A stretch of 64,000 bases of DNA. Source: an uncultured Chlamydiae bacterium. Lineage in GTDB: Bacteria > Chlamydiota > Chlamydiia > Chlamydiales > Parachlamydiaceae. Made by a program: the position numbers and the translations under genes. The notes under the pieces are model-generated. The model ran no database searches. It was given only the letters and a program-made list of their open reading frames with translations, and was not told where the DNA came from. The number at the start of each line of letters is the position of its first letter. Position 1 is the first letter of the stretch. Below, piece by piece: positions 26,136-45,100 of this stretch. Location: assembly GCA_963754655.1 (NCBI GenBank), contig CAVWGN010000001.1:320001-384000 (forward strand), in the 5' to 3' direction.

Positions 26136-28496
26136 TTATTGATTCATTAAAATGAGGGTCTGCTGAGTAGGCCCTGAAAGAAGGGAAGTTGCACGGCCTT
26201 CTACCCAATCTTGATGCTGATCTCGATAATGAGGAGAGAGCGGATGACCGCTTTGGCCACAAGGCATTTGTAAAATGCCCTCCTTCTCATTTCCTGGAGC
26301 TACAACGAGTCTTTGTGAAGCCCCCTCCGTAGAGCTTATAACGCGCGGAACCCAATAATCTCCCGAAATAGAATCGGGTTTCATATTCAAAAAAACATCT
26401 GCTCCCGGAATCGCTCCGCTCAATGGATGAGAAATTGCCATTGTATTTCTTTTGCCCCATGTCTGTTCCTTTATTTTACCAGGAGGGGTTTTCTCTATCA
26501 TTTCATCTATAAAACTTAAAAGTTCCTTTTGCCAACTTCCATATTTCGGATTCGCAAGATAGTCCGGTTGTTGAGAGGCAATCAACCAAACAGGTTCTTC
26601 AAAGTCAAAGTGAGAAGCATGAAAAGAGGGATAAGCTAAAAAACAGGGTTTGAGAATTCTTTTAAGAACCTGTTGATAAACTTGTGCGCGAAATGAACGT
26701 ATCCAATAATAAGCAGCGGATTGAGCGGAAGCATGACCCTCCCAAGTGGAAATAACTTCTAAAAGTTCTTTTCTTTTTCCTTCCAAAAAGGGTGTCTTTT
26801 GAAGCGTTTGCATGAAAAGTTGATGCCACCTTTGAAAGAAAAAAGCTTCATCATCTAATTGAATAGATAACATCTTTTGTAATGTAAAATTAGAGGTTTC
26901 ATTCAAGCGACGTTGAATTTGATAGGCCCTTATTCCATTAATAAAATAGCTGCTGGACATCAGAGGATTTTTAGCAATATCTAGAGTGCGATTATTTGCT
27001 GTCCATAAAATCCCGTCTTTAGGATTCACAATTTTAGGATAGGAGCTCGGATCCATTTTTCCCAGCCATTGACAAGAAGGATCTTGCAACAAGATAGGAA
27101 GAGTGCCATCGAATCCCTGTCTCTCTGGCAGAGTTCCCACTAAAGTCCAGCCAATGTTCCCTTCACGATCGGCTAATAAACAATTTAAAATAGGCATTTT
27201 TATTTGCGGAATCTTGGCTAATGCCTCCTCAACTGAAGAAGCATTCTCTAGTTCCATGAGCTTTAAATTTAAACATTCAGGATCGTGGGCAATCCATTTT
27301 AGAGCAATGGGTTGATCAAAAAAATGATTGGCAAGCAAGGGTCCCCATTCTGTATCTGAAAATTCAATAATGTCAGGACTTTCTCCTTTAATGAAAATCA
27401 CTTCCTTGCGCTTGATCAGGGGTTTCCAACCTTCTACCGTCAAATAGTTCTCTTGATTTTCTGGATGAAGAGTGACCATGGCAATGTCTGCTGTATCCAG
27501 ATAAGCATTGGTAAATCCCCAAGCAATTTGGCCATTGCTTCCACAAATCATTAACGGCATGCCAGGAAGTGTCAATCCACAAATATCAACTTTATGAGAA
27601 TTTAAATTAAGGAAACGCGCCCTATACCAAATGGTTGGAACTGATAGACCAAGATGCATGTCACACGCAAGGATAGCTTTGCCATCTTTTGTCTTTTTTC
27701 CACTGACTGCCCAGTGATTGCTTCCTCCTAAGTGAGGCGCGTCTGCTTGAATTGGAATTTCCTCCATTGAGTGAACATCAAAGGAGTTCAAATAAGAGAA
27801 ATCTTCAGGAGGAGGAATAGGCACATAGGGGATTTTGCTTCCATCCAAAGGAGCGTCCCAAGGAGATCCCTGATGCAGAAAAAAATGACTAACGGAAGAA
27901 GGAAGCAGTCGATGCAAATATCCCTTCATTAAATCTTTTTCTCCTTCCGCATCTTGCAATTCGAAAAACAGATTTAATCCGACTAGTAAACTATCTTCTG
28001 GCTTCCAAGGTTGTGGAGAAGTGAAGAGCAGAAAATACTCAAATGGCTTTGCTTGTAAATGGGATAATCCCTGGTTGACTCCATGAGAATAAGCCTGCAA
28101 AATCTCTTGTTCTTCATGTGTTAATTGAGACCACATTTGTTTTGCGACCCGTCGAAGAGCATGGTATCGCCTTTTCTTATCAAATTCTAATGCAACTCTT
28201 CCCACTAACTCTGCTAGCTCTCCACTTGAGGCTCTTCGCAAGAGATCCATTTGAAAGAATCTTTCTTGAGCATGTAAAAATCCCAAAGCTTGCGCGATAT
28301 CTTCTCGATGGGAGGCCTGAATGGTAGGAATTCCTAATTGATCTCTATCAATGATCACTTGTTGTTTTAATCGGTCTAATGACAGATGACCTGTATGCAA
28401 GGGAAGGCTAGCGCGAAAGAGAAGGAGGATTCCTATTAAGCAGGCCAGCATGATTGCTGTGAAGATCATTAAGGCTTTCAACACATATTTTTTCAT
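26136..28496 (-). CDS. Penicillin acylase family Ntn-hydrolase, N-terminally anchored
   Basis: N-terminal TM; GFLHAQERFFQMDLLRR, G|SNHWAVSG nucleophile, DMHL, TANN and GQSGHPLSPHYRDQ motifs. Confidence 0.92.
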   Translation of the reverse strand: MKKYVLKALMIFTAIMLACLIGILLLFRASLPLHTGHLSLDRLKQQVIIDRDQLGIPTIQASHREDIAQALGFLHAQERFFQMDLLRRASSGELAELVGRVALEFDKKRRYHALRRVAKQMWSQLTHEEQEILQAYSHGVNQGLSHLQAKPFEYFLLFTSPQPWKPEDSLLVGLNLFFELQDAEGEKDLMKGYLHRLLPSSVSHFFLHQGSPWDAPLDGSKIPYVPIPPPEDFSYLNSFDVHSMEEIPIQADAPHLGGSNHWAVSGKKTKDGKAILACDMHLGLSVPTIWYRARFLNLNSHKVDICGLTLPGMPLMICGSNGQIAWGFTNAYLDTADIAMVTLHPENQENYLTVEGWKPLIKRKEVIFIKGESPDIIEFSDTEWGPLLANHFFDQPIALKWIAHDPECLNLKLMELENASSVEEALAKIPQIKMPILNCLLADREGNIGWTLVGTLPERQGFDGTLPILLQDPSCQWLGKMDPSSYPKIVNPKDGILWTANNRTLDIAKNPLMSSSYFINGIRAYQIQRRLNETSNFTLQKMLSIQLDDEAFFFQRWHQLFMQTLQKTPFLEGKRKELLEVISTWEGHASAQSAAYYWIRSFRAQVYQQVLKRILKPCFLAYPSFHASHFDFEEPVWLIASQQPDYLANPKYGSWQKELLSFIDEMIEKTPPGKIKEQTWGKRNTMAISHPLSGAIPGADVFLNMKPDSISGDYWVPRVISSTEGASQRLVVAPGNEKEGILQMPCGQSGHPLSPHYRDQHQDWVEGRATSLLSGPTQQTLILMNQ

Positions 28497-28500
28497 TCAA

Positions 28501-29919
28501 TCATTTTCCTTGAGATAAGACTAGGATATCAATTTTGGTCGAGAACTTTTTGCATGGTTTTCTTTCTCCCTGACATTGCATTTCATCTCTATAAATGAGT
28601 TCAATTAGAGGAGCTAAAGAAAGCCGCTTATACAGATCAGGCGTGATTTGCATCACTAAATGGGGATTAAATTGATAAAATTGGATCCAGGGTAATCCAA
28701 GATCGGATTGATCTTCAACAATTTGATAGTGCTTATACCCTTTCGGTAACAAAGAGCGATTTATTAAAAAAATGATGCTATTGGCAGGAATTGGAATGTC
28801 TAAATCTTTTAATAAAGTGAAGCCGCCATCTCTCTTAGTGACGCGAAAATAATGGATTGCATTGTAATCGGAGCTCATTTTAAATTTTTGTTGTAAATGA
28901 GAGGCAAAAATCGTCAAACTATCATGAAAAGGAATTTCAAAAATTTCCACATTCTGCCTTTCTGGCCATACATTAATATTTTTTAAAGGAAAATCAGGAA
29001 GGCTCTTTTCACCCAATGGCTTCAATTTGATCCCATTAGAATAGGCAATATCTTCTTCCTTTAAATCAGGTCGCATCAGGGAAAGTTCTTTTGCCTGTTG
29101 ATCGAGATTGTCTTCCTCTTTTTTATCAATTAAGCCCCGCAAAACCATGCTGATGCGCTGTCCTTTAGAGGATCCAGCTTGTTCTGTTCCATTCACATCC
29201 TCCGGAGATAAAACAGTGTGATAAGGAAGAAGAGCTGCGCCAGGATCTGTAGGACAATTGGATTCTTGATAGGTGATAGGTTCAACAGAAAACATGTTGA
29301 CTTCATCTTTGGGAAGCAAGGAAATTAAAAAGCGATCGTGACCAATAGGATCATGAAAAAGTGTTCCCGAAATTGTGAAATCAGCCATGTCCCAGTCAAT
29401 TAACGCTAAGTCGTGAACGAGAGCATAGTGTTGCTCTGGATGGAAATGCTCTTGTATATATTTAAACTGCCGAGGAAAGCTATCGCGATGAAAGGAGTGT
29501 GCATCATGGCTGACAATGAAATTAATTTCTCTAGTGACTCCCATGAGATGAATATTGAAGATTTTTTCAACAATCTCTTTGGCTTTTTGCGCATATTCAT
29601 TGAGAACTTTTTGTCCTGTTGGATCTTGAATTTCTGAGGATAGTTGAGATCCCTCTCCCCCTTCAGGCAAAATAGAAGCAATCGCAGACATTTCTGTTGT
29701 TCTTGGATTAAAATAGGTATCGGGCACTAATTTAATTTGCCTTGCATTAATTTGTTTAATTAATTGTTGTCCGATCTCATGCTTTTCGGGTGTCATATAA
29801 AAATAAGTCTTTGTTTGACCAAATTTAATCACCCAGATGTCTTGATTGTTAAGATGACCTGGTAAGCTTGGAAAATAAGAGGTGATAGGTAAAGAGGAAG
29901 AAGAAAGGAGGGGGTTCAT
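28501..29919 (-). CDS. Hypothetical protein with a possible 2OG-Fe(II) oxygenase motif set
   Basis: ATG at 29919 overlaps the upstream stop (ATGA) and has a GGGAG RBS; FHRD...YHTV...RISMVLR resembles HxD...H...RxS. Confidence 0.5.
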   Translation of the reverse strand: MNPLLSSSSLPITSYFPSLPGHLNNQDIWVIKFGQTKTYFYMTPEKHEIGQQLIKQINARQIKLVPDTYFNPRTTEMSAIASILPEGGEGSQLSSEIQDPTGQKVLNEYAQKAKEIVEKIFNIHLMGVTREINFIVSHDAHSFHRDSFPRQFKYIQEHFHPEQHYALVHDLALIDWDMADFTISGTLFHDPIGHDRFLISLLPKDEVNMFSVEPITYQESNCPTDPGAALLPYHTVLSPEDVNGTEQAGSSKGQRISMVLRGLIDKKEEDNLDQQAKELSLMRPDLKEEDIAYSNGIKLKPLGEKSLPDFPLKNINVWPERQNVEIFEIPFHDSLTIFASHLQQKFKMSSDYNAIHYFRVTKRDGGFTLLKDLDIPIPANSIIFLINRSLLPKGYKHYQIVEDQSDLGLPWIQFYQFNPHLVMQITPDLYKRLSLAPLIELIYRDEMQCQGERKPCKKFSTKIDILVLSQGK

Positions 29920-30974
29920 AACTCTCCCGAAATTTTTGAAGGCTTTTGGCACACGAAAGTAAACTCAACGTCCTCGGGAGAGGCAATTTCATCTGTATAT
30001 CCTTTTAAGACTTTAATGGCGCTAAATCCCACCTCTTTTAGCAGACGATGAAATTGTTCTTGAGTATACCAGCGCATTTTCAACGTTTCATGTTCAGTAG
30101 AAATGATTGTTCCTTGATCCAAAATATCATAACGATATTCGGAATATTCAAGTTGTTGATGACGATCAAATTTCGCCTTTTCCCAACATTGAATGGTCAT
30201 GCCATCCGATCTTATTCCTTCTCTACGCAAACGCCATTCATCTTGAATAGGTGCACTGACATAAATATCATGGTCTGTAAGAATAAAGAGAGAAATGAGG
30301 AGAGACCCTTCGGGCTTTAAATGAAGATAAAAACGTCTTAATGCTTCTAGCGCTTCTTTTTCATCATGAATCAACATAAAGGAACCAAAAGGAATAAATA
30401 GTGTGCCATACTGTTTTGGAATGTTTAGCTGCTGCATTGCTTGTTGATAGAGATTTAATTTTAAACCATGCTTTTCAGCTTTCATTCGACATCTCTCAAG
30501 CATATGGGGAGATAAATCAACTCCTTCCACTTGTAAACCTTTTTTAGCATAGGGAATCAACAGTCTCCCATCTCCACAACCTAGCTCTAAAGCAGGTTGA
30601 CTCTGGTTTTTTAAGATGTATTTTTCATATAACTTTGCATCTTCATACTCTTGATTTTCTGGAAACCAAACTCCATAAGACTCCGAGCTCACTCTTCCAT
30701 AGCCTTGCATTTTTCTTTCCCTCCTTTCTAATAGTGATAATTCTCTATCTTTATGTAGACAATGCTTTGCAAAAAGATCCACAATCAGCTCTTCTTGTTG
30801 TCTGTAAACCTTGCTTTGTTGCAATTTATCCAACTTTTTATCTTTCGGATGTGGAGTAGAAAAAAAATGCTGGGTAGGAAGGATGAGCTGCTTTTGATTT
30901 TTTCTAAAAGACATTCTTCTGAATCGCTGAAATTCATGCAACGGTTGTGAGAAATGAATTCTGGATATTCTCAT
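29916..30974 (-). CDS. Class I SAM-dependent methyltransferase with an N-terminal extension
   Basis: LELGCGDGR, GVDLSPHML and HLKPEG motifs; start overlaps the NRPS stop. Confidence 0.9.
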   Translation of the reverse strand: MRISRIHFSQPLHEFQRFRRMSFRKNQKQLILPTQHFFSTPHPKDKKLDKLQQSKVYRQQEELIVDLFAKHCLHKDRELSLLERRERKMQGYGRVSSESYGVWFPENQEYEDAKLYEKYILKNQSQPALELGCGDGRLLIPYAKKGLQVEGVDLSPHMLERCRMKAEKHGLKLNLYQQAMQQLNIPKQYGTLFIPFGSFMLIHDEKEALEALRRFYLHLKPEGSLLISLFILTDHDIYVSAPIQDEWRLRREGIRSDGMTIQCWEKAKFDRHQQLEYSEYRYDILDQGTIISTEHETLKMRWYTQEQFHRLLKEVGFSAIKVLKGYTDEIASPEDVEFTFVCQKPSKISGEL

Positions 30975-33900
30975 AAGTGTTGAGCCTCCAAAGAATGATT
31001 TGTTCGACTTTCAAGCTCATGAACAATTTGCTTAATTGCCAATAAGTAATGTTTTTGCCATTCGTGCATCGTTGCTTCTTCAAAAGAGTGCGTATCATAA
31101 CAAATGGAAAGGGTTAATCGATCTTCCATAATGATGGCATTGACCTCAATAAGATGAGGAACTGGATTACGCGGATCGGTTAGATTGGCAAATGTTTCTC
31201 GACAGTTTGACAAGAGACTCTGCGATCCTTGAAGCAAATCGGATCCTACACGGCCGAAATAATTAAATAAAATTTCAGGAGCTAAGGCTTGAAGTTGTGG
31301 GTGTTGATGATGATATTTAGCTACACCAAAATGAAAGTCATTTGGAGCAATCTGCCGTAAATGCTGACGAATGGATAATAATGTCTCCATTAGGCTCGGT
31401 GCTTCTTCTATTGAGAAAGGAAAGAGTGTGGTCAACCAACCCACCGTGCGGCCTACATCAACATGTGGAATGTTTTCTCGCCCATGTCCCTCCAAATCTA
31501 AGAGTAATCGACTCATTTTAAATTGTTGTTTTAAAGAGCTAAATAAAGCAGTGAGGAGAAGATCATTGACATTGGTATCAAACACTTGATGCACCGACAT
31601 CAACTGACGTGTAAATTCCGCATCAAAATGCAACGACACTTCTTTATAATATTGAGACTGATTGCAAGGGCGTTGTTTCTCCGCAATGGAGGGATGATCT
31701 TTTAGCTGCAAGGCTAGCCAATAATCAATGTTTAATTGTTGAGGCTTCAATTCATGAAGAGTCAATGCATAATTAACCCAAGAATCGGTTGTGAGAAGTG
31801 GAGGTGGATTTAAGTGATGCTGGTAGAGCAACTCAATGTCTTCGACAAGATAACGCCAAGAAACTCCATCAATGAGAAGATGATGAACAGCAATAAATAA
31901 ACGCTGTTCCTGATGATTGAGTTGAAAAATCACCGCAGCAAAAAGAGGTCCTGTAAAAAGATTAAAACTTTCTTGTCGTTTTTGTGTGATCTGCAAAATC
32001 TGTTGTTGTTGCTGCTCAAATGTCAATGAACTCAAGTTGATGATGTCAAGTTTAAAAGAAAAAGGTTGAGCAATTCTTTGTTCGATCATTCCATTCTTTT
32101 CTTCAAAGAGGGATCGTAATGCTACATGATCATCCAAACATTTTGAAATGACAATTTCCAAAAGCTCAATATTCACATGCACAGGTAAACGGAAAAGATA
32201 AGCCATGTTGAAATAATGTGGATTGGGCATCTGGTGTTGAAAAAACCATTTTTGTATAGGCGTAAGCGGGCTGATGAATAATTCTTCTTGTTGTGATTTT
32301 TCCTTTATTTCTAACGAAACAGTTGAAACATGTTGACTTAACGCTGCAATCGTGCGGTATTGGAAAATATCTTTAATTGTAAAACAAAGATTGCGTTGTC
32401 TTGCTTTTGATAAGATTCTCATGGCAATAATAGAATCTCCTCCAACAGCAAAAAAATCATCAAAGATGCCTAAAGATTCAACTGATAGTCCTAAGACTTG
32501 ACACCAGGCTTCATGTAAAAATGTTTCTTCCGTTGTTCTCGGTTTGGCAATTTGAGCTTGTTCTTGTTGCAAGGGATGAGGAAGGTTTTGATAATTGATT
32601 TTGCCATTTGAATTAATTGGTAAAGTCTGCACTTCAACAAAATAAGCTGGAATCATAAAGGCAGGAAGCTTGTGGCTGAGCCAATCTCGAATTTCCTTTT
32701 GAGAAATCTCCTTTTTTAAGCTATAGAAAGCGCAAAGGGTCTTTCCTCTTGCTTGAATATCTTTTAAAGCTACAGCAGCAGACTGCACAGCTGGATGTTG
32801 AGAAAGATAGCCTTCAATTTCATTGAGTTCAATTCGATGGCCACGAATCTTCACTTGCCTATCAGTGCGTCCCACATATTCTAAAATCCCTGTTGGCAAT
32901 AGGCGACCTAAATCACCCGATCGATACATTTTTCCAGGATGAAATGGATCCCTCATAAAACGCTCTTGTGTCAAACATGAATCATTCAAATATCCTCTTG
33001 CTAAGCATTCTCCTCCAATATAAATTTCTCCTATGCTCCCAATGGGAACCGGTTTTTGATCTGCATCTAAAAGATGAATCATGACTGTGCGAATAGGATA
33101 TCCAATTGGCATTTGAGAATACTTTTCATCCAGGGTTGAATTCCATTCATAAACAATGCATCCAACAGTTGCTTCTGTCGGACCATATTCATTATACACT
33201 TGAATGGGTTGATCATATAGCTCACTCAGTTCTTGAACCTTTGCCGTATAAAGAGCTTCGCCACCTACAATAAATTTATAAATGTTGGAAAGAGGCTTTC
33301 CATTCTCGATGATCATATTGAGATGGGTCGGCGTTAATTTTAAAATATTGATTTCTTGATCTTGGCAAATGTTTCGTAAGACTTCATCAAATTCGCCTGT
33401 ATAAATACGTAAATAAGAGCCTGTAAACAAAGGACAGAAAAGACTTGTGACGGTTAAATCAAATGTCAAAGGAGAATAAAAAGGAAAGATGGGCCGTTCA
33501 CCTTCTCGATCGCTAAAATAATAGTGGATTGCCCATTCGATATAATTTTTCACAGTGCCATGCTCGACCATAACTCCTTTGGGAACACCTGTTGAACCGG
33601 AAGTAAATAAAACATAGGCCAATGCCGTGGGGGAAATGGGTAAATTTAAATTTGCCTTAGAAGAGGAGATCAAATGGCATAATCCATATTGATCTTTATG
33701 TTTCTTTGCTGTTCTTGGTACAGGCGATTGTTTATCAATGAAGAGAAGGGCATCATATCTAAACTGTGTCAACTCATTTTCAATTGTATGTTCTTTTTGG
33801 CTAATGCAGACATCGACAATCATAGGAAAATCAGCTTGCAAATCTTCTAAAAAGCGACGAGATAAAAAAAGTTCAACAGACCAATCTGTTTTAGTACGAT

Positions 33901-36900
33901 ATTGCTGATTGTGATTTTGATTTTTAAAATCATGCATGTATTTTTCAAGCTGTTCTTTGAGATCGAGATCCATGAGATCCCCCAGAAAAATGACTGCTTG
34001 ATTCTTCACTTTATGAATAGCCTGCTCAATGACGTGTTTAAAATAGTTAAGTCCTGGAAAGCAATGAACCACGCTATTGAGAATCACACAGTCAAATGCC
34101 TCCTCTTCAATGTTTTGAATCTCATGCGCATAGACTTGAGCAAAATGTACATGAGGAAGTTTGTTCTTTGAAGCTTTCTGCCGATTTTTTGCAATGATGC
34201 GGGAAGAAAGATCGGTTCCTAAATAAAAACCTGTTAAAGGCGCGAGTCCAAAAAGAGTAATTCCTGATCCGCATCCAATTTCCAACACACGGCTACTGGT
34301 CGTCAAAAGAGGACGAAGCTTATTGACAATACTTTGCTTATATTCTTCCATCTCAAATTTAGAAAATGGAAGGCCGGTGTCGCTTTTAACCCAGCCGCTG
34401 GAGTGAATGTCATCTTCTCCTTCTTCTGCTACTTGGTCCCAAAGGCTTTCATTCATTAAAGTATGTTGGGATTGCTCTTGCAATCGTGCGGGATGTTCCA
34501 CATCCAGGCAAATATAAGCTTGCAAGCACTCATTCTCCCATTGCATTTTATTTAATGCAGATAAATGAGAGCTTTTTGAGACAACTAAACGAATGTTTCC
34601 CTGTTGAATAATGGATTGAGTTCTTTCTAAAGGAGCTTTAATGTCTAAGGGAACATAGGCTCCTCCTGCTTTCAAAATGCCTAGAATGCTAATAATGGAT
34701 TCAATGGAATTTTCCATATAAATCGCCACAAGTTCTTCTGGCAGTAAGGCCTTTTGATTCTTTAGAAAATGAGCCAGTTGATTGGCTCGCTGATTCAACT
34801 CTTCGTAGGAAACCGCTGTATGGCGATCTTTGATTGCAACTGCATGGGGACAAACTGCGACCTGATTTTCAAAAATGCGATGTAAAGGTTGACTCACTTC
34901 TAAAAGCTTTTTCTTAGAAGGAATCCATTCATGGACTAATTGATAAGCAGCAGGATCAATCGCTACATCTTTAATGCTCAAAGAAGGATTTCTCACAAGC
35001 GATTGGAGAAGACTTAAATAACTGCGAAAAAGAGTTTCAATCATTTGATCGCTATATATTTCTTGATAATACTCAATATAGCAATCCAGTCCATCCTCGC
35101 GTTTGACAAATTCAAACTCTAAATCCCATCGGCAATTATGATGAGGAAGCTCAATCCGAGAAGCAGTAAACTCTTTAAAAGATGCTTTAGATTCTGCATC
35201 GACATCAAACTGATGAAGGGCGACGTTAATATTGAAAAGAGGAGAACGACTTGTATCTCTTGGCAAATTTAGTCGATCAATCAACTGATCAAAGGGGTAA
35301 TCTTGATGTTCTAAAGAGTGTAGCACATCTTGCGCCGTCATCAGGAGAATATCTAAATAACTTTGTGTAGAATCGAGCTGATGGCGCAAAACAATGGTAT
35401 TAACAAAAAATCCAACGATTGATCTCAAATCATAGTGAGAGCGTCCAGCCACAGGTGAACCAACGATCAGATCTTTCTGTCCTGTATAACGGTAAATAAG
35501 AACGTAAATGGAAGCCACTAGACCCATAAATAATGTGGCTTGATGCTTTTGCGTTAATTGATTCAAATCCTTTAACACAGAAGCTGGAATTTTAAAAATA
35601 CGCCTTCCTCCCTTGAAGGTGAAGACAGTAGGCCGCTGATGATCTCCTGGAATTTCACAGATAGGCAAAGACCCTTTCAATTTTTGCATCCAATATTGCG
35701 CACTCTTCTCGATCTTTTCATTTTGCATAAGCTTTTGCTGCCACTGGCTATAATCGACATATTGAATGGCAAGAGGGGGAAGAGAAGTTTTTTTGCCTTC
35801 TTTGATGTGTTGATAAGATTTCAACAGATCATCAAAAAGAATTTTCAGAGAAGTTCCATCGGAAATCATATGATGCATCATGAGCAGGAAAATATGCTCC
35901 TGCTCGGATGTCTCAATCAAAAGAGCTTTAATTAAGGGTCCTTGAGAAAGATTGAAAACGCCTTGCTTGAAATCTTCAATCATTTGATCTTTTTCAGCCC
36001 CTGTCATTTGAAAAAGGGTGAGATCGAAAGTCTCAGGAGGAAGAATTTTCTGGTAAGGTTGTCCTTCTTGATCAATAAAAATTGTTCTAAGACTTTCATG
36101 ACGAATGATCAGGTGATCTAAAGCGCTTTGAAAGGCTTTTTTATCTAAATTGCCTTTCAAAGAGTAGCATTCCCATATATTATAGGCAGTAGGATGATCT
36201 TGCATCTGATGAAGAATCCACAGTCTTCTTTGGCCATAAGATAGGGGAATGAGCGTATTGCGATCGACTTTGGGAATCAAATCACAATCTTGAGTGTCTT
36301 TCCGACATAATAACTGGATTAAGTCGCAAATTCTTGGATGACTGAACAACTCTTGAAAGGAAAGGCGCTTATGAAAATGCTTATGGATTTCATTAATCAA
36401 TTGAACACCGAGAAGCGAATCACCACCTAATTCAAAAAAGTTGTCATTCTCTTGAATGTGGTCAATTCCCATCATTTTCTTAAAGATGCTTATGAGAATC
36501 TGCTGTGGATCTTCACCCATGATTTCTTGAGCAATCGCAGTAGAATGCTGATGAAATTCGCGATTTGCAAAAGCTGCATTTTCAATCCAAAAGCGATGTG
36601 GAGAAAAGACATAGTTAGGCAAAGGGACAACATGAACATTGAATGATTTAAAAAATAGCAGCCAGTCCACTTCTTGTCCTTTGAGATAATCCATGACAAG
36701 TGCTTGAGCAGGATAAAATTCTTTTACAGAGGGGTTGCTGTTGTCTTCTAGAATTCTTTTAAGTTTCTGATAAGCATCTTTCTTCGAATCACACATCAAT
36801 CCTATTCGGTTTGCATAATGATCTCGACGCACAGCAAGTGTGTAACAGATATCACCAATTGAAAGAGTCGTATTTTCCAAAAAAGCCAGATATCTTTTGG

Positions 36901-38398
36901 CTAGTTCCTTTAATCCCTTTTCAGTTTGACTAGAAAGAACAAAAGGCAAAGGTTCTGTCGAGGGCGAATCTTTTTCCTTTAATTCATCCCCTTCTTCAAG
37001 AACGAGGTGGCAATTTGTTCCATTAAAACCAAATGCGCTGACTGCTGCTCGTCTTGGATGAGTAGATGCCTCCCATGGAAGAGGATGATTGACAATATAA
37101 ACAGGGGTGGACGAGAAATCGATGAGTTCATTAGGCTCATTAAAATGCAAATTTGGAACCATTTCCTTATTTTTGATGGATAGCAGCGTTTTAATTAAAC
37201 TTGCTAATCCCGAAGCTCCTCCAGTCAAATGGCCGATATTTGTTTTAATTGAACCGAGACCGCAAAATTGCTTATCTTGCGTAAATGTCTCAAAAGCTTT
37301 TGTTATCGCTTGAATTTCAATGGGATCTCCGATCTTAGTCCCCGTGCCATGTGCTTCAAAATAGTCAATGGTACGTGGGTCGATCTTTGCTTTCTTCCAT
37401 ACATCCTTTAACAATGTTTCCTGAGCTAAGGGATTAGGGGCACCTACGCTTGAAGAGCGTCCATCATTATTGACGCCGCTCGCTAAAATCGTTGCGTAGA
37501 TGTAATCTTGATCGCGCTTTGCCTCTTCAAAACGTTTAAGGACTAGAGCGCCGCCTCCTTCTCCAATGACAATGCCATTTGCTTTGTTATCAAATGCGCG
37601 ACATTTTCCATCGCTAGAGGTGATGCCTAAGACATCAATGTGATCATCGATAAGAGCAAATGGAAATAAGCGAAGGTTGATTGCTCCCACTAAAGCCATT
37701 TGGCATTCTTTTAAAAGCAGGGATTGGCAAGCTTCATGGACTGCAACTAGAGCAGTGGAGCAAGTCGTGCTGACATTGACAGTAGGGCCATGTAAATCAT
37801 AAAAGTAGGAAATGCGAGAGGTGATAAAAGGGGTCACATTTCCAATGACAGCGGATGCGCTGACTTCTGGAATAATTTGGCGATACTCATTCATGACGTC
37901 GCCTAAAAAAACTCCTGTGTTCGTTCCTTGTAGCATGCGACGCGTATATCCTGCATCTTCAAAAGCTTCATGAGCCAATTCTAAAAAGATCCGCTGCTGT
38001 GGATCCATGACTTTAGCTTCGGCAGGCAGGATGCGAAAAAACTCGTGATCAAAAAGATCGATGCGCTCTAAAAATCCTCCTTCAGAATAACGTTTAGAAG
38101 CTTTAAATCGTTTTGAAGGAACAGAAGAGGCAAGCGGATCAATATCCTGGCGTCGACTTTCCGGAAAGGAAGTCACACAATCCACGCCTTTGTGAAGATT
38201 GTCCCAAAATTTCTCTTTTGTGGATGCCATAGGCATGCGGCACGAAATCCCAATAATGGCAATTTTCTGGGAAGAATCGACTTCCATTGGCTGGTGCTGA
38301 TGCAAGCGCTGATATTCTTCAATCAAAGCATGAGCCGTTTTTTGGTCAAACTGCTTGTCTTTATAAAGTTTCAATAGGTGTTTAATATACAGGTCCAT
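30971..38398 (-). CDS. Hybrid trans-AT PKS/NRPS: KS-ACP-C-A(MT-interrupted, Asn)-PCP-E
   Basis: KS (TTCSTAL, HGTGT, NIGH), no AT, ACP GGDSL, C HHMISDG, A with pocket code DLTKIGEVGK, MT VLEIGCGSG, PCP GGDSI, E domain (HHLLIDGVSW, EGHGRE, RTVGWLT). Confidence 0.93.
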   Translation of the reverse strand: MDLYIKHLLKLYKDKQFDQKTAHALIEEYQRLHQHQPMEVDSSQKIAIIGISCRMPMASTKEKFWDNLHKGVDCVTSFPESRRQDIDPLASSVPSKRFKASKRYSEGGFLERIDLFDHEFFRILPAEAKVMDPQQRIFLELAHEAFEDAGYTRRMLQGTNTGVFLGDVMNEYRQIIPEVSASAVIGNVTPFITSRISYFYDLHGPTVNVSTTCSTALVAVHEACQSLLLKECQMALVGAINLRLFPFALIDDHIDVLGITSSDGKCRAFDNKANGIVIGEGGGALVLKRFEEAKRDQDYIYATILASGVNNDGRSSSVGAPNPLAQETLLKDVWKKAKIDPRTIDYFEAHGTGTKIGDPIEIQAITKAFETFTQDKQFCGLGSIKTNIGHLTGGASGLASLIKTLLSIKNKEMVPNLHFNEPNELIDFSSTPVYIVNHPLPWEASTHPRRAAVSAFGFNGTNCHLVLEEGDELKEKDSPSTEPLPFVLSSQTEKGLKELAKRYLAFLENTTLSIGDICYTLAVRRDHYANRIGLMCDSKKDAYQKLKRILEDNSNPSVKEFYPAQALVMDYLKGQEVDWLLFFKSFNVHVVPLPNYVFSPHRFWIENAAFANREFHQHSTAIAQEIMGEDPQQILISIFKKMMGIDHIQENDNFFELGGDSLLGVQLINEIHKHFHKRLSFQELFSHPRICDLIQLLCRKDTQDCDLIPKVDRNTLIPLSYGQRRLWILHQMQDHPTAYNIWECYSLKGNLDKKAFQSALDHLIIRHESLRTIFIDQEGQPYQKILPPETFDLTLFQMTGAEKDQMIEDFKQGVFNLSQGPLIKALLIETSEQEHIFLLMMHHMISDGTSLKILFDDLLKSYQHIKEGKKTSLPPLAIQYVDYSQWQQKLMQNEKIEKSAQYWMQKLKGSLPICEIPGDHQRPTVFTFKGGRRIFKIPASVLKDLNQLTQKHQATLFMGLVASIYVLIYRYTGQKDLIVGSPVAGRSHYDLRSIVGFFVNTIVLRHQLDSTQSYLDILLMTAQDVLHSLEHQDYPFDQLIDRLNLPRDTSRSPLFNINVALHQFDVDAESKASFKEFTASRIELPHHNCRWDLEFEFVKREDGLDCYIEYYQEIYSDQMIETLFRSYLSLLQSLVRNPSLSIKDVAIDPAAYQLVHEWIPSKKKLLEVSQPLHRIFENQVAVCPHAVAIKDRHTAVSYEELNQRANQLAHFLKNQKALLPEELVAIYMENSIESIISILGILKAGGAYVPLDIKAPLERTQSIIQQGNIRLVVSKSSHLSALNKMQWENECLQAYICLDVEHPARLQEQSQHTLMNESLWDQVAEEGEDDIHSSGWVKSDTGLPFSKFEMEEYKQSIVNKLRPLLTTSSRVLEIGCGSGITLFGLAPLTGFYLGTDLSSRIIAKNRQKASKNKLPHVHFAQVYAHEIQNIEEEAFDCVILNSVVHCFPGLNYFKHVIEQAIHKVKNQAVIFLGDLMDLDLKEQLEKYMHDFKNQNHNQQYRTKTDWSVELFLSRRFLEDLQADFPMIVDVCISQKEHTIENELTQFRYDALLFIDKQSPVPRTAKKHKDQYGLCHLISSSKANLNLPISPTALAYVLFTSGSTGVPKGVMVEHGTVKNYIEWAIHYYFSDREGERPIFPFYSPLTFDLTVTSLFCPLFTGSYLRIYTGEFDEVLRNICQDQEINILKLTPTHLNMIIENGKPLSNIYKFIVGGEALYTAKVQELSELYDQPIQVYNEYGPTEATVGCIVYEWNSTLDEKYSQMPIGYPIRTVMIHLLDADQKPVPIGSIGEIYIGGECLARGYLNDSCLTQERFMRDPFHPGKMYRSGDLGRLLPTGILEYVGRTDRQVKIRGHRIELNEIEGYLSQHPAVQSAAVALKDIQARGKTLCAFYSLKKEISQKEIRDWLSHKLPAFMIPAYFVEVQTLPINSNGKINYQNLPHPLQQEQAQIAKPRTTEETFLHEAWCQVLGLSVESLGIFDDFFAVGGDSIIAMRILSKARQRNLCFTIKDIFQYRTIAALSQHVSTVSLEIKEKSQQEELFISPLTPIQKWFFQHQMPNPHYFNMAYLFRLPVHVNIELLEIVISKCLDDHVALRSLFEEKNGMIEQRIAQPFSFKLDIINLSSLTFEQQQQQILQITQKRQESFNLFTGPLFAAVIFQLNHQEQRLFIAVHHLLIDGVSWRYLVEDIELLYQHHLNPPPLLTTDSWVNYALTLHELKPQQLNIDYWLALQLKDHPSIAEKQRPCNQSQYYKEVSLHFDAEFTRQLMSVHQVFDTNVNDLLLTALFSSLKQQFKMSRLLLDLEGHGRENIPHVDVGRTVGWLTTLFPFSIEEAPSLMETLLSIRQHLRQIAPNDFHFGVAKYHHQHPQLQALAPEILFNYFGRVGSDLLQGSQSLLSNCRETFANLTDPRNPVPHLIEVNAIIMEDRLTLSICYDTHSFEEATMHEWQKHYLLAIKQIVHELESRTNHSLEAQHL

Positions 38399-38405
38399 AA
38401 ATGAC

Positions 38406-41400
38406 TTACCTTAAGAGCTGAGCTGCTTTGTCAAGATCGATGAGGCCACTGTCAATATCAATCAAAAGTTGCGAAATTGTATCTTTCTGATTCTCTCCAT
38501 ACAACTTCTTTTTGCAGTGATGACAAAATAAGTCCAGAGTTGAATGAGAATAAAGATCTGACACTTCCAATGGAATTTGCAGTTGTGTTTTAGCAAGATG
38601 AGTCAATTTCACCGCACTAATGGAGTCTCCGCCACTATCAAAGAAGTTATCTGAATCTGCAATGTGAGAATGTCCTAAGACATCCTTCCAAATTTGGATG
38701 AGGATGGCTTTGATCTCTTGAGGTGAAAGATCTGATTGTAAGGAATGAGAATGGATGATCTTTGGTTGAGAGTCAATTGAGTGACCCTTAAACTTCCTTA
38801 ATAACTCTTCCGAAAATCGAATTTTTATGAATGGCAAGACGAGATTCATCACATGGGAATCAAAATCTGCCACCACGGCAAAAGGAAGGGCGTAAGATAA
38901 AAAGAGATCCAAACACTCAATAAATTCTTCCTTGGTGATGGGAGGAATCATACTCATTCGATCTGAAAGAAGACTTCCATCATCAGCATCAATTAAAGTA
39001 TAATTCATTGTAATTGTCTTTCTTCCTTGTTTATTGCGAAAATCTCCATAGCTATCTAAAAAAAGATTTTGGGCGCAACAATCTGCTCCTGTTGGACCCC
39101 CCATCAAAGAAGAAATTGAAGAAAATGTTGCCATAAAATCGAGTGGATGATGAAGCGTCAATTGATCAAGTAGCCAAATGACTCTTAGCTTTGAAAGAAC
39201 ATTGTGTCTAAATATATCAAAGGAAACTTTTTCAATGACTGTATGGTTGACATTTTTGATCGCAACAAAAATGCCATGAATAGATCCCCACTGATTTTCA
39301 ATCTGTTGAATAAATCCGCTACATTCTTGCTGATCAGTAATATCCCCTGACAGGTAGAGGACTTCTGATCCAAGTTCCTGGAGGTGTTTGATGATTCGCA
39401 AAGGTTTGTCTGTTAGATGACTTTCTGGCTTTCTTCCGATTAGAGCTATTTTAACCTTGGCTTTTTTAGCTAATAATAGGGCTGTCTCCAAACCTAGATA
39501 GCCTCCTCCTCCTGCAATCAAATAGACACCTCCTTCTCTAATCATAAATGAAGGTGAGGGCAAATGGGAAATATCTAACGAATGAAGAATTTGAACATAC
39601 CGTTTTCCGTTGCGGTATCCAATAAAAGGATCTGAATAAGTGAGAGACTCAAAGATGTCTTGATAAAGATTTTGAGCCATTTGCTCGCTATAATTGTGGA
39701 TGTCAATATCGATGGCTAAGCTCTGAACTTGAGGAAATTCTTGGGAAATCACCTTGTTGATGCCAAGAGCCGCCATTCTGGTAGGATCTATAAATGGCTC
39801 TTGTCCATCAATGCTTTGGGCATAAGCGGTGATATTGATAAATTTTAATTCTTTTGATGTGAGTTGCTTTTGGCAAGCACGAATGAGATGAAAACAGCTA
39901 AAAGCACTTCTGTCTTGTGAATGGCTGATAGCCTCATAGCTTTCCATACTGCAAGAAGAGGGAAGGCAATCCCATAGATGAATCATCCCGGCTAACTTGT
40001 CTAATGAGAGCTGATGGAGAAGTTGGGAATAGTCTGAAGGAATATGAGGCCGAATAGTGAAGCTGCTCTGATTGACTTGTTCAAAGTGATCTCCTGCAAA
40101 AACTTGAATGACATTCATTCCTTTGGCTTTGCAAAAATCCGAAAATTTCTGATGTTCTGGAATAGCCTGCATCAAAAATAAAACAGAAAGCTGAGGATCG
40201 ATTAGTTCTACATTTCCCTCTTTATTTTTGCTTTCTTCTTTCCAATCAAGAGAGAAAAATAAATCTTGCAAACGGCTCTGCTTTTCTTGAGGGATTTCTA
40301 CCTCAAGTTTAGGCCAATGACGTTTGGCATTAAAAGCATAAACAGGAATTGCAACTTTTTGTTTGTTTTTTTCACCAAAGATTGTTGTCCAATTGACAGA
40401 TTGTCCATTGAAATAGGAGCTTATTTCATGAATCAGACTCTTTTTTAATAGCTGTTGCAATTCAGAAGGAGCGTGCCAAAGAGGGGCTGAGTCAGTGATC
40501 GTATGATAAAAGAGGCGATGCAGCGGATCATTTTGAAAGCGATCTTTCTCTTTGTGATTTAAGTAAGCGGTTATTTGCTGAACGAATTCCTGACATGTCT
40601 TACCCATCATGACAAGGCGATGAGAATAATGATTTCTACCAACAGCTGATGTATAAGCAATATGGGCTAACAGGTCATCGCTAACTGTTTGTAAATAGTG
40701 TGCGTATCTTTTTAAGAGCAAATGAAGAGCAGTAGGATCTTTTGCTGAAATAAACAAAAGATAAGGATCTTCAGAATAAATGTTAGGAATTTGCATGGGG
40801 TATTCTTCTAAAACTAAATGGCAATTGGTTCCGCTAATGCCAAAGGAACTAACACCTGCTAATAGGGGAGAAGCAGTGTGAAAGGATAATAATTGATGAT
40901 TTGGAAAGACTGGGGATTGATCAAAGTCGATAAAGGGATTAGGTTTATTAAAATGAATATTGGGAGGCAGTTGTCGATGCTTCAAACAAAGAATGGCTTT
41001 AATCAGTCCTGCAATTCCCGATGCAGCCTCAAGATGTCCAATATTTGTCTTCACAGCACCTAAAGGGCAAAAATTTGTCTTTTCTGTATATTTTCTAAAT
41101 GCGTAAGTTAAACCCGTGACTTCAATGGGATCGCCTAATTTTGTTCCTGTGCCATGCGTTTCAATAAAGCTTAGCTGTTCAGGATTAATTCTCGCTTTCT
41201 CCCATGCTTGGCAAATCACATCAGTTTGAGCTTCCGGATTTGGGGTTGTAATGCCATTGGAAGTCCCATCACTATTCACTGCGCTTCCTTTAATCATGGC
41301 ATGAATATAGTCTCCATCTCGTTCCGCCAAATCTCTTCTTTTAATGACAAGCGCGGCCACTCCATCTCCAATGTTCGTTCCATTCGCTTTTTCATCAAAC

Positions 41401-42179
41401 GTTTTGCATTTGCCATCAAATGCTTCAATTCCCAAATTGGCAATCTCCCGGAGAGCAGGAAAAAATCGGATATTCACTCCTCCAACAATCGCCTGTTCGC
41501 AATCCCCATCTTTTATGGCTTGACATGCTTGATGAACTGCAACAAGAGAAGCTGAACAAGATGTATCGATCAGCATGGTAGGTCCTTTTAAATCAAATAA
41601 ATAAGACAAACGATAAGCCAATAGGGCAGGTTGATTGCCTAGAGAAACTGAAGAATCATTTTTATCTAAAATATCGATATAATTATCTTCATTGACCGAA
41701 TAGCCGATATAAATCCCTGTTTTGCTTCCACGCAATTGACTTTCGGTCAAGCACGCATGATCGAGCGCTTCAATGGCCACTTCAAGGAAAAGACGTTGAG
41801 CGGGATCCATGACTCGCGCTTCAACAGGTGTTAAGCCAAAAAAAGTATGATCAAAGAGATCAATGCGATCTAAATAAGCTCCGGCTCGGCAATTCAGTCC
41901 CTTTGTCTGTTCAAAAATAGCCGAATTGACATATTTGATATCTTCCATTCGATTTTTGGGAAAAGCTGTCACCGCATCTTTTCGATTGAGAAGTTGAGTC
42001 CAAAATTCTTCTGGATTTTGAGAGCCTGGAAAGCGACAAGCCATCCCAATAATTGCCCATTCAATCACTTGTGCAGACGGGGCTGGTTGTCCAATCTGTT
42101 TTAAATAAGTATAAGCCTCTTCCGGGGTCAATTGTTTGCTTTGAACTTGCTCAATAATAAATTCTTGTAAACTTTTCAT
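38406..42179 (-). CDS. Trans-AT PKS module KS-KR-ACP
   Basis: KS (DTSCSASL, HGTGT, NIGHLE), no AT, KR GGGGYLG with Cys at the catalytic Tyr position (GADCCAQN), ACP GGDSI. Confidence 0.92.
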   Translation of the reverse strand: MKSLQEFIIEQVQSKQLTPEEAYTYLKQIGQPAPSAQVIEWAIIGMACRFPGSQNPEEFWTQLLNRKDAVTAFPKNRMEDIKYVNSAIFEQTKGLNCRAGAYLDRIDLFDHTFFGLTPVEARVMDPAQRLFLEVAIEALDHACLTESQLRGSKTGIYIGYSVNEDNYIDILDKNDSSVSLGNQPALLAYRLSYLFDLKGPTMLIDTSCSASLVAVHQACQAIKDGDCEQAIVGGVNIRFFPALREIANLGIEAFDGKCKTFDEKANGTNIGDGVAALVIKRRDLAERDGDYIHAMIKGSAVNSDGTSNGITTPNPEAQTDVICQAWEKARINPEQLSFIETHGTGTKLGDPIEVTGLTYAFRKYTEKTNFCPLGAVKTNIGHLEAASGIAGLIKAILCLKHRQLPPNIHFNKPNPFIDFDQSPVFPNHQLLSFHTASPLLAGVSSFGISGTNCHLVLEEYPMQIPNIYSEDPYLLFISAKDPTALHLLLKRYAHYLQTVSDDLLAHIAYTSAVGRNHYSHRLVMMGKTCQEFVQQITAYLNHKEKDRFQNDPLHRLFYHTITDSAPLWHAPSELQQLLKKSLIHEISSYFNGQSVNWTTIFGEKNKQKVAIPVYAFNAKRHWPKLEVEIPQEKQSRLQDLFFSLDWKEESKNKEGNVELIDPQLSVLFLMQAIPEHQKFSDFCKAKGMNVIQVFAGDHFEQVNQSSFTIRPHIPSDYSQLLHQLSLDKLAGMIHLWDCLPSSCSMESYEAISHSQDRSAFSCFHLIRACQKQLTSKELKFINITAYAQSIDGQEPFIDPTRMAALGINKVISQEFPQVQSLAIDIDIHNYSEQMAQNLYQDIFESLTYSDPFIGYRNGKRYVQILHSLDISHLPSPSFMIREGGVYLIAGGGGYLGLETALLLAKKAKVKIALIGRKPESHLTDKPLRIIKHLQELGSEVLYLSGDITDQQECSGFIQQIENQWGSIHGIFVAIKNVNHTVIEKVSFDIFRHNVLSKLRVIWLLDQLTLHHPLDFMATFSSISSLMGGPTGADCCAQNLFLDSYGDFRNKQGRKTITMNYTLIDADDGSLLSDRMSMIPPITKEEFIECLDLFLSYALPFAVVADFDSHVMNLVLPFIKIRFSEELLRKFKGHSIDSQPKIIHSHSLQSDLSPQEIKAILIQIWKDVLGHSHIADSDNFFDSGGDSISAVKLTHLAKTQLQIPLEVSDLYSHSTLDLFCHHCKKKLYGENQKDTISQLLIDIDSGLIDLDKAAQLLR

Positions 42180-42186
42180 ATCATTC

Positions 42187-45100
42187 TTAGTAAGTTAGAT
42201 TATTTTTAACTGTTTGAATATCAACAGCGCCTTCTGCTAGCTGTTGCAGTAGATTTAATGTTTTGTCAGAAGAAGGGGTTGTTCTCTCAACTGTATTTTG
42301 TTGTTTTTGCTTCAGCATCTCGATCATCTGGCCTTGTGCTTGACAGGTGTGATGAATAAAGAGATCAGCAATATTTATTTTCAAATTAAATTGATCTTGA
42401 AAGAGTTGATGAAGTTTAACGATTAACAAAGAATTTCCTCCTATTTCAAAAAAGCTATCGTGAAGCTGAATATGTGCGATAGGCAAAACGCTCTTCCAAA
42501 TCTGGAGAATTTGAATTTGGATTTCAGAATAAGTGTCATCTTGAAAAGAAGCGGGCTTTTTCCGATAAGTATTCAGTTGAAGATAAAGAGCAGGATAATT
42601 GATTTTCCCATTGGGGAGCCGAGGAAATTCCTCAATGAAAAGGAAAGCGTCGGGCATTAAATAAGGAGGAAGTTTTTTTCTGAGTTTTTCTTTAATGACA
42701 ATTCTCTTTTCATCGTAATGCTGGGTCATGGCTGCATGTGCAGGAATGATAAAAGCGGCAATTTCCGTTGAATTTTGGTTCATCTCTTGTCGGCAAATGA
42801 TCAGAGACTTGCCCACTTCTTCTAATTGATCAATGTTTGCTTGAATTTCCTCGGGCTCAATTCTAAAACCTCGTCTTTTAATCTGTCCATCCAGGCGGCC
42901 TAATAAGAAGAGAGTTCCATTTTTATCGTAGTAAGCCTTGTCTCCTGTTTTGTAGATTCTCTCTCCCGTTTCGGGATGAGAGAGAAACTTGGATTTGGTT
43001 AATTCAGGAAGATTAATATATTCTCGTGCAAGGCCTTCTCCTCCAATATAGAGTTCTCCGGCAACGCCAATAGGGACAACTTGCAAATAAGGATTTAAGA
43101 CAAAACAGCGCACGTTCTGAAGAGGTTTTCCAATTGGAATTGCCTGTTCAATATCTGTTTCAATCAAATGACATGCACAAGAAATTGAAGTTGCTTCTGT
43201 CGCTCCATAAGTATTGAGCAATTTAATTTGATGGCCAAAGTGACTTTTCCATTTCTGAAGTGTATATTTATTTAACCGCTCTCCACCGATGATCAAGAGT
43301 CTTAGGCTAGAGGGAAGAGAAAGATTTTTTTGAATCAAATAATCTGTAAAATCATGCCAATAAGAAGTAGGAAAATTCCATATGCTGATCTCATATTGAT
43401 GAGACATCTCAAGAATCTGATCAAAGGGTTCAACGAGAGCATTTCCTCTTAAGACAACTGTTCCACCAGCTAGAAGGCAGGGATAAATTTCTTCTGAGCT
43501 TGTATCCCAACTTATCGAGGCAAATTGTAAACAATGATCTTTCGAAGTCATTTCGAAGAGTGTTTTGGCTGCTAAAGCAAAATTAAGGAGAGAGTGATGT
43601 TCAACAGCCACTCCTTTGGGTTGACCGGTAGAGCCCGAAGTAAATAATAAATAGGCAAGTTGGTTTCTAAGATTGGAGATAGGAGAGAGTTTAACTGAGG
43701 ATTTTTCAGGAAGGTGAGCAGGATCGATAAGAGTGCCCTTAAAATAGGCGAAGCGATTAAGTAGAGTGGTTTGACAAATTAAAATATCAATCTTGGCTTC
43801 TTTAATGATCCATTCAATTCTTTCTTGAGGATAAGAAGGATCCAGGGGAACATAGGCACATCCGCATTGCATAATGGCTAAGAGAGTCGGGATCAGAAAA
43901 CGCGTTTTTTCCATTGCTAAACCGATGGCTTCTCCCTCTCTTCCTTTTACGAGAAGCAAGGCTTGCGCAATGGCTTGCGATGCCTCCAGGAGTTCTCGAT
44001 AGCTCATCTCCTTGCCTTCTGCAATAACGGCAATCGCATCTGGATGTTGCTGAGCTTGTTCTTTAATCAAATCAAAAACTGTTTCAACTGCCGGAAGTTC
44101 CACGTGCGTTTTGTTCCATTCTATCGTCATCATTTGCACGAGGCTTGGATGCATAAATTGTACAGCTTGAACCGGTTGATCAGAGAATCGAAGGACTTGC
44201 TTAATAAGGGTCATGTAATCTTCCGCGAATTGCTCAACAAGAAAAGTGGGTAGACGCTCTTCACGGTATTCAAATAGTAATGCAAGATGCTGGGATTTTT
44301 GGCGGACTTCTAATACTAGGTCATAAAGAACAGGATGATCAGATGGGTGGACAATCTCTACTGTTGCATTCGGGAAATGTGGAATCTCAACAGGAGCATT
44401 TTGCATGACAAACATCACTTGGAAAAGAGGATGAACGCCGTCTATTCGCTTCGGGTTAACGGCATTTAAAATTTCTTGAAAGGGCAGAGCTTCATTTTTA
44501 ATTCCCTTTTGCAGTCCTTCTTTGACTTGCTGCAAGACCTCCTCAAAAGTTGTATGGGGCGAAAATGTTGTCTTATTCACTAATGTATTGACGAAGAAAC
44601 CCAGAACATTTTGAAACTCAAAAGAAGCGCGATTGGCACTCGGATATCCAATCAGAATCGTCGATTGATCAGAATAGCGATGGAGTAAAGCGTGATAAAC
44701 TGCAAGGAGAAAACAAGCTAACGTACAATGAGATTTGTAAATAAAATGTTGGATTTCATCAAACAAAGATGTTTCAATCTTCATTTGAATATTTTTCCCT
44801 TTTTTATGATGAACTGCTTTGATGGGTTGGTGCTCATGTGAAATTGCCAAAATAGAACACTCATCCAAATGGCCTAAATCATTTTTCCAATTGACCTTCA
44901 ATTGCTGCCATTCTTCTGTTTGAGAAAATTGCTCTTGCCATAAAGAAAAATGAGAATAATCAGACTCTAAAGCAGGTAATGTCGCTTTTTTTCCGGCTAG
45001 ATGTCCTGCATATAGCGCAAAGAGTTCATTTGCAAATACTCCCATGGACCAGCCATCGCAGATCATGTGATGGAAATTAAAAATGATGACATGATCTTCA

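Follow-up and report, generated by a model that had tools for sequence, protein, structure and literature searches.

The adenylation (A) domain of a hybrid polyketide synthase-nonribosomal peptide synthetase (PKS-NRPS), encoded in a 64,000-nucleotide stretch of an uncultured Parachlamydiaceae bacterium (assembly GCA_963754655.1, contig CAVWGN010000001.1, positions 320,001 to 384,000; hereafter the window, with coordinates counted from its first letter), is split between its motifs a2 and a3 by a methyltransferase (MT). From motifs, pocket code and relatives, the insert probably belongs to the backbone N-methyltransferases of family 4 (type V), with N-alpha-methyl-Asn as the residue produced. 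The inserted domain is thus of an already catalogued type and brings no new methylation chemistry. The Asn module that contains it follows a beta-Lys- or Orn-type module and ends the assembly line. Together with the preceding protein it makes up a conserved cassette that chlamydia-like symbionts (seven Chlamydiota genomes) have in common with soil Bacilli (four genomes): KS-KR(Tyr to Cys)-ACP followed by KS-ACP-C-A(MT)-PCP-E (ketosynthase, ketoreductase, acyl carrier protein, condensation domain, peptidyl carrier protein and epimerase-class domain).

The gene (30971..38398, minus strand, as are all its domains) encodes 2475 residues. Pfam alone gives the order KS, ACP, C, an AMP-binding domain split by a methyltransferase, PCP and another condensation-family domain; motifs added to the Pfam result give KS-ACP-C-A(a2[MT]a3)-PCP-E. 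By Pfam and motifs, the KS (37142..38269) is an elongating one with an intact Cys-His-His triad (TTCST, HGTGT, NIGHL), and the C domain (34958..36253, HHMISDG) lies after an ACP (about 36308-36499). Motifs place a1 and a2, the N-terminal part of the split A domain, at 34643..34810, a3 to a10 with the pocket code at 32591..33646, and the PCP (GGDSI) with the terminal epimerase-class domain (HHLLIDGVSW, EGHGRE, RTVGWLTTLFP, FNYFG) at 31004..32530. The region with the inserted S-adenosylmethionine (SAM)-dependent type V N-methyltransferase, delimited by Pfam, motifs and a structural model, is 33647..34561 (residues about 1280-1584, core motifs 1335-1549).

A preliminary description of the window, made from the letters alone, had proposed an N-methyltransferase-type domain between a2 and a3, and every motif it quoted is where it had been located. 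In the motif scan, a2 (LKAGGAYVPLD, 34675-34643) and a3 (33622-33575) flank GWVKSDTG (34396-34373), VLEIGCGSG (34288-34262), the NSVVHCFP motif (34093-34040) and NELTQFRYD (33778-33752). The boundaries were likewise borne out: inside the split AMP-binding domain, residues 1350-1504 match Methyltransf domains of Pfam with E-values as low as 1.6e-12. In an alignment with LgrA, the A domain pairs to local residue 113 and resumes at 419, a step for which LgrA advances only from 311 to 335, leaving a gap of about 282 residues as the insert size. From a8 (residues 1843-1862) to a9 (1911) the protein shows no interruption. For the A(MT) unit (777 residues), AlphaFold, supplied with 70 sequences, gave a model with a mean pLDDT of 94.6 and a pTM of 0.94 in which the insert is Rossmann-like. 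The A part of this model superposes on 4D4I, an A domain without interruption, with Z 53.2 and an rmsd of 1.6 A across 465 residues, so that the methyltransferase is genuinely inserted into a fold that stays intact. No a2-a3-interrupted structure was found among the PDB matches. The arrangement is not due to chance, since at E<=1e-30 the insert has matches in 704 of 1.84 billion cluster representatives.

The pocket code was also read back from the A domain. Residues D1647, L1648, T1651, K1687, I1710, G1712, E1737, V1745, G1746 and K1933, placed from motifs and not by direct alignment to GrsA, spell DLTKIGEVGK, which we take, as the preliminary description did, to be an Asn code.

Two kinds of a2-a3 inserts are distinguished by Lundy et al. 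(2020, PMC8341866), type IV, represented by TioN and acting in Cys S-methylation, and type V, represented by TtbB and acting in backbone N-methylation. Type V corresponds to their family 4 (A2-Mb-A3, n=188, 270 +/- 6 residues), whose representative TtbB makes N-methyl-Tyr (PMC8341866). The premise of the preliminary description that a2-a3 inserts methylate side chains consequently fails, the same site hosting the backbone-methylating family 4 (PMC8341866). Its second option, an atypical backbone methylation, is kept as to the backbone, which is the favoured reading, but not as to being atypical, because family 4 is defined as a backbone class at a2-a3 and the domain would represent its typical case.

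Compared with the type V mb(a2-a3) motifs (PMC8341866, Table 1), the insert has no mismatch in motifs ii, iii and vi and one in motif iv, while type IV motif ii finds no match in it within four mismatches. At the positions that tell type V from the S-methylating type IV, the insert is of type V throughout. N1441 is invariant (100%) in a 57-row set of type V domains whose codes are for Val, Ile, Leu-like, Gly or Tyr/Phe residues, and is replaced by Ala in 75% of 8 rows with Cys codes, and the position of W1336 is Phe in 8/8 of these Cys rows. Three residues separate Leu and Arg in NELTQFR, as in type V, and a3 starts 44 residues after NELTQFRYD, the insert being without the type I C-terminal extension. 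Of 84 columns that are conserved across the 57-row set, 72 are retained by the query and 78 by the cassette consensus. The likeness to TioN drawn in the preliminary description is therefore not supported, the signatures being those of type V. The traits of family 3 (AS(T/V/A)xQF, two residues between L and R, a Cys-type pocket) and those of family 1 (insertion at a8-a9, about 390 residues) are all absent from the query.

Phylogeny agrees with this assignment. The insert retrieved 6025 matches at E<=0.001 among the 1.84 billion representatives, and the methyltransferase rows comprised the best 150 of them plus earlier matches and loci, after leaving out stretches of <200 residues or <75 bits and 11/34 loci. 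Multi-module NRPSs made up the bulk of the homologues returned for the whole A(MT) region as query, and a genome-contig scan with the insert as a single protein gave 79 pattern matches and no confirmed one, after which it was rerun with an alignment. In FastTree trees, one branch with 100% support holds the 12 type I rows and another, equally supported, the 8 type IV rows; the query is in neither, and in the rooted tree the query falls inside a 195-row type V group (support 0.90). The placement within type V and apart from types I and IV is the outcome of the comparison with interrupted-A classes that the preliminary description had recommended.

The substrates of these relatives point to the site of methylation. 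A downstream a3 was found in 196/219 methyltransferase rows, and their A-domain codes, labelled by their usual meanings, are Asn 37, Ser 16, DIWE-type 16, Val 14, Gly 12, Thr 12, Tyr/Phe 12, Ile 10, Leu-like 9, Cys 8, Asp 3 and other 47. Since the Gly, Val, Ile and Leu-like codes, 45 rows together, stand for residues that have no side-chain heteroatom, the chemistry shared by type V must be at the alpha-nitrogen. As a separate observation, the two residues that follow NSV(I/V) vary with the code, being HC in 13/16 Ser rows, QY in 9/12 Gly rows, QC in 10/10 Ile and 12/14 Val rows, and either QS (20/37) or HC (15/37) in Asn rows; this pair may be a substrate code for type V methyltransferases.

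Several features nonetheless weigh against a backbone assignment. Motif i deviates at three positions (HSSGWVKSD versus xxGGWx(S/N)x(Y/F)), the GW core being kept; in the orthologues, that of Paenibacillus curdlanolyticus (P0211) included, it reads SGWVSSY. At position 1340, where Tyr is 91% conserved across the 57-row set, the query has Asp. All 17/17 cassette methyltransferases have S1334 in place of Gly and H1445 in place of Gln, so that the site may have been retuned. Ten cassette methyltransferases branch off at the margin of the main type V group in one tree, where the joining node is weakly supported (0.29), and the code counts, drawn from only the best 150 of 6025 matches, are biased to the query. 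Finally, family 4 domains have never been assayed in isolation, their backbone role being deduced from pathways (PMC8341866).

The fixed pair S1334 and H1445 is one argument for methylation of the Asn side-chain amide to N-gamma-methyl-Asn, the preference of the preliminary description, from which release as an N-methyl aminosuccinimide is conceivable. Further points in its favour are the PCP-E that follows 14/33 Asn-type modules versus 6/135 others, a contrast inflated by orthologues, the occurrence of side-chain-methylated Asn in polytheonamide and aeronamide (PMC11285071), and the switch to side-chain S-methylation in the type IV relative at the same site (PMC8341866). On the contrary, the Asn-amide methylases PoyE and AerE are enzymes of peptides made by the ribosome and modified after translation (RiPPs), and act on precursor peptides (PMC11285071), and all type V diagnostics are retained in the insert. 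H1445 is, moreover, common to Ser-type modules (94% of 16 rows) and 20/37 Asn rows carry QS, which argues that this residue tracks substrate shape and not amide chemistry; the pair at this spot follows the A-domain code and looks like side-chain accommodation. The insert also lacks the NPPY-type motif at the end of strand 4 that is tied to amide methylation. Side-chain methylation is, on balance, unlikely. Paenilamicin, whose N-methyl-diaminopropionate is side-chain methylated (PMC9414260), was considered as a type V side-chain precedent and set aside, the string 'larvae' being absent from the supplement of PMC8341866.

At 12/84 conserved columns the query departs from the type V consensus (among them 1340, with D for Y, and 1356, with S for N), which could alternatively mean that the insert has decayed and that the module loads plain Asn. 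This is very unlikely, given that GxGxG, D1396, N1441-S1442 and NELxxxRxD are intact in a frame open over 2475 codons and that position 1340 varies in orthologues too. The letters themselves recur in one public DNA run, maybe the source sample, of which short contigs are identical to the window, including 34054-34252; 26 of its contigs match the window, and no listed piece spans an insert junction.

Backbone methylation thus remains the favoured reading, and orthology supports membership of family 4. WP_006037480.1 (P0211) of Paenibacillus curdlanolyticus is 41% identical over 2495 columns, that is, over its full length, and has the same domain order and pocket code. The A(MT) unit is also collinear with a stand-alone A(M)-T protein of Tistrella mobilis (31% over 783 columns, E 1e-120), presumably a thalassospiramide module. 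WP_006037480.1 is printed in the family 4 table (Table S5), where the Tistrella mobilis strain is also present, and a Brevibacillus sp. CHY01 entry there fits the orthologue at L015, matched by strain name and range only (PMC8341866). The string 'chlamyd' is absent from the supplement of that paper, and no family 4 member from Chlamydiae was found in the open-access literature. Among the matches listed, the closest named one to the insert is L020, from a Parachlamydiaceae bacterium (64% over the half insert that it holds).

With family 4 and TtbB, the query shares the a2-a3 site, the size (about 280 versus 270 +/- 6 residues), motifs ii-iv and vi and the Asn of NSV; it differs in its three deviations in motif i, in the Q to H change in motif iv, in having an Asn code where TtbB has Tyr, and in being embedded in KS-ACP-C-A-PCP-E where TtbB is stand-alone. 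TioN and MarQ (family 3, type IV, Cys S-methylation) have the same insertion site and a related methyltransferase, but also the Ala for Asn in motif iv and the shorter L..R motif, neither of which the query shows. The best PDB match of the methyltransferase is 5WMM (E 7e-28; next match 2e-11), that is TioS A4-M4 of family 1, with the same GW, GxGxG, NSV and NEL..R motifs and an insert that sits at a8-a9 and is about 120 residues longer; Lundy et al. class this M domain as type I, backbone-methylating (PMC8341866). PuwA of puwainaphycin synthesis, in which an Asn A domain with a methyltransferase gives N-methyl-Asn, is likewise part of a FAAL-primed (fatty acyl-AMP ligase) lipopeptide line, but its module is internal and followed by Pro and a thioesterase (TE); the comparison is by description, in which the insertion site is not stated (PMC4219810).

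The same searches returned other arrangements of these domains. In P0289 (2020 residues), P0172 and L097, one A domain is interrupted twice, at a2-a3 by a type IV-like S-methyltransferase (ASTIQFFP, ELRYRYD; Cys-type code) and at a8-a9 by a type I N-methyltransferase, and is followed by a PCP and, in P0172, a TE. Such a domain would make N,S-dimethyl-Cys on its own; Lundy et al. (2020) report having met no natural case of this arrangement (PMC8341866). Open frames of 368-382 residues in G090:C21, G101:C1 and G301:C172 (L183, L184) match the methyltransferase profile (E 1e-37 to 1e-47) and are possibly stand-alone relatives of the inserted domain. On a Bacillus thuringiensis plasmid, a stand-alone 382-residue 'hypothetical protein' (L175:14656-15804) aligns with the insert over its whole length (36%, E 2e-47); its neighbourhood is not of NRPS type and includes a SAM synthetase. 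In G020, a genome of the same family, a stand-alone A(MT)-PCP with a Gly-type code (L012:13977-16691) lies beside a large trans-acyltransferase (trans-AT) PKS-NRPS and is probably an N-methylglycine starter.

The order of genes on the minus strand is aminomutase, acyltransferase-thioesterase (AT-TE), FAAL-ACP-C-A-PCP, KS-KR-ACP, KS-ACP-C-A(MT)-PCP-E, methyltransferase, a 483-residue protein and a penicillin-amidase-family hydrolase. From it we infer substrates, timing and product as follows. A fatty acyl starter would be joined to beta-Lys and extended by two unreduced malonyl units. In the last module, the A domain would activate L-Asn and load it on the PCP, the methyltransferase would transfer a methyl from SAM to the alpha-amino group of this PCP-bound residue, the C domain would join the upstream beta-ketoacyl chain to N-methyl-Asn, and epimerisation would follow. 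Release would most likely take place by Dieckmann closure, giving an N-methyl tetramic acid; the oxygenase and the second methyltransferase would act in tailoring, and the amidase would take off the acyl chain.

Such timing has a competitor in a methyltransferase acting later or elsewhere, either on the product after its condensation or cyclisation (at the ring nitrogen or a carbon) or on the beta-Lys or Orn amine. The module is terminal, the chain as drawn offers several nucleophiles and the cassette methyltransferases carry fixed changes of their own, all of which is compatible with it. Nevertheless, interrupted A domains reportedly activate, load and then methylate the tethered amino acid (PMC8341866), and a separate methyltransferase is encoded next door, making a later or other acceptor quite unlikely beside methylation of tethered Asn.

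By established chemistry, the thioester of an N-methyl amino acid that bears a beta-ketoamide is poised for Dieckmann cyclisation. A beta-ketoacyl donor from an unreduced KS-ACP and the lack of a downstream module are found here as for EfiE, and the product that we propose is a lipopeptide-diketide ending in an N-methyl-Asn tetramate; the chances of tetramate release itself are about even, the alternatives being succinimide formation through the Asn amide and hydrolysis by a TE. No TE was found in the 60 kb examined for each of the Bacilli genomes G061 and G421, nor on the 35.7 kb contig of the Chlamydiota genome G062, and 15 cassette terminal domains form one branch (96%) among 32 epimerase domains. 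Two facts speak against a cyclising release. The window's genome, G229, G343 and G224 have a TE nearby, and the terminal domain keeps every canonical epimerase motif (HHxxxDGVSW, EGHGR, RTxGWF, FNY; RTVGWL in the query), so that nothing in its sequence indicates cyclase activity. In epifadin synthesis, a trans-AT PKS-NRPS ends in a condensation-like domain proposed to form an Asp tetramate (PMC11310079). EfiE of that pathway and malonomycin resemble the present system in being trans-AT PKS-NRPSs in which the last module incorporates Asp and has a condensation-superfamily domain at its end, but they are set apart by description, ending in a CT-type domain and with no interrupting methyltransferase described (PMC11310079). 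With respect to EfiE, the terminal domain of the query is of epimerase class and its polyketide part consists of two unreduced units, not a polyene. No described product for the cassette and no work on Asn-type family 4 domains was found, mainly in the open-access literature.

The distribution of the cassette bears on what it builds. In a scan of the phylum, 14/401 genomes matched at E<=1e-20; the cassette is present in G000, G026, G229, G385, G343 and G224 (cut by contig ends in G026 and G385), and the other 8/14, namely G020 with its stand-alone Gly-type module and 7 uninspected genomes, were not counted. The seventh carrier of the phylum is G062/G871, counted once, and the carriers span four families of the window's order. 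The cassette was not found in three genomes of the same genus (96-99% complete). Among Bacilli, matches at E<=1e-60 occur in 7/61 genomes of the family of G061 and in 11/401 of the class, with the cassette protein recognised, on inspection of part of the matches, in G061, G421, G785 and G741. G061, G421 and G224 have longer lines ending in Ser(E)-Orn, with a P450, the code DVGE(I/L)G(S/T)IDK being taken by us as that of Orn. The lines of G000, G229, G343 and G062 are short and have an aminomutase, a DTE(N/D)IGT code and an oxygenase. Orn and beta-Lys both place an aminopropyl side chain on the N-acylated carbon. G224 combines a long line with an amidase, a second methyltransferase and a TE of the short type, a mixture that suggests transfer and shortening.

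A tentative view, with less than an even chance of being right, is that the cassette is a portable head-group builder of an undescribed class of lipopeptides. It would convert an aminopropyl residue, Orn in long Bacilli-type lines and its one-carbon homologue beta-Lys in short ones, into an amino-diketide capped by an N-methyl-Asn tetramate, with the epimerase-class domain as release catalyst and with deacylation by the amidase activating the product in chlamydia-like symbionts.

The remaining genes of the cluster all lie on the minus strand. A KamA-family radical SAM 2,3-aminomutase (49303..50481; Pfam, NCBIfam) has its best NCBIfam score, 456 bits, for lysine 2,3-aminomutase, under the cutoff of 525 of that model; a second homologue, 34% identical to it, lies elsewhere in the genome. 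It is followed by the AT-TE fusion, a trans-AT with a type II-like TE (47405..49276; Pfam, NCBIfam), and by the FAAL-ACP-C-A-PCP starter (42187..47448; Pfam and motifs) with code DTENIGT(IS)K. The adjacent aminomutase and the usual meaning of this code suggest beta-Lys as the substrate of the starter A domain, for which a PDB search gave no structure informative on substrate. In the trans-AT PKS KS-KR-ACP (38406..42179; Pfam and alignment), the KR has Cys where the catalytic Tyr should be, as part of a conserved D-C pair, in 7/7 aligned orthologues from both phyla, and G421 has the same motif. With this replacement both extensions are probably unreduced, and the KR may be a retained non-reducing or repurposed domain.

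Downstream of the Asn module lie a stand-alone class I methyltransferase (29916..30974; Pfam, NCBIfam) and the 483-residue protein (28501..29952), which had no match in Pfam, NCBIfam, the ESM Atlas or a PDB sequence search and is predicted by fold search to be a tandem double-stranded beta-helix Fe(II)/2-oxoglutarate oxygenase. Its two beta-helix domains resemble OGFOD1/Tpa1 (Foldseek E 1.2e-6) and many other 2-oxoglutarate oxygenases (VIA Z 9-11), and H155-x-D157, H245 and R266-x-S268 are invariant in 17/17 homologues. The family was seen in 9/400 genomes of the order, with three to four copies around other FAAL/KS/NRPS clusters in G284 (C1:220920-250609) and G246 (C4:41808-59618) and one fragment named from Candidatus Megaera; it may be a tailoring enzyme typical of the lineage. 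The cluster ends with a penicillin amidase-family Ntn hydrolase (26136..28496; Pfam, NCBIfam), a candidate deacylase of the fatty-acyl starter.

A phosphopantetheinyl transferase on the plus strand (23439..24194; Pfam) faces the cluster across an insertion sequence and repeats. These consist of a two-frame transposase-like element at 24209-24960 on the minus strand, resembling the IS5 type, and, between the transferase and the amidase, about 1 kb of nested palindromic repeats (25050-26070). On the other side of the cluster, a 1000-residue protein (54259-57261, plus strand) with many TPR-like repeats of about 40 residues is encoded in a low-GC stretch and could be a secreted host-interacting protein. 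The cluster genes themselves have a GC content of 0.37-0.41, similar to the 0.388 of the chromosome, and no further NRPS module was detected elsewhere in the genome at E<=1e-8.

The inserted domain being ordinary, the conserved cluster without a described product is the better lead. Nonetheless, as family 4 is common but unassayed alone, and no a2-a3 structure was matched in the PDB, the Asn module makes a clean test case, in which backbone and side-chain methylation give different hydrolysis products. Chlamydiae possess many biosynthetic clusters, mostly without known function, that have been proposed as a basis of host protection (PMC9666466). If the cassette is indeed a head-group builder, it would provide a defined small-molecule candidate for defence in intracellular symbionts, and its presence in four families of the window's order, together with culturable Bacilli counterparts, means that the product could be looked for without culturing the symbiont.

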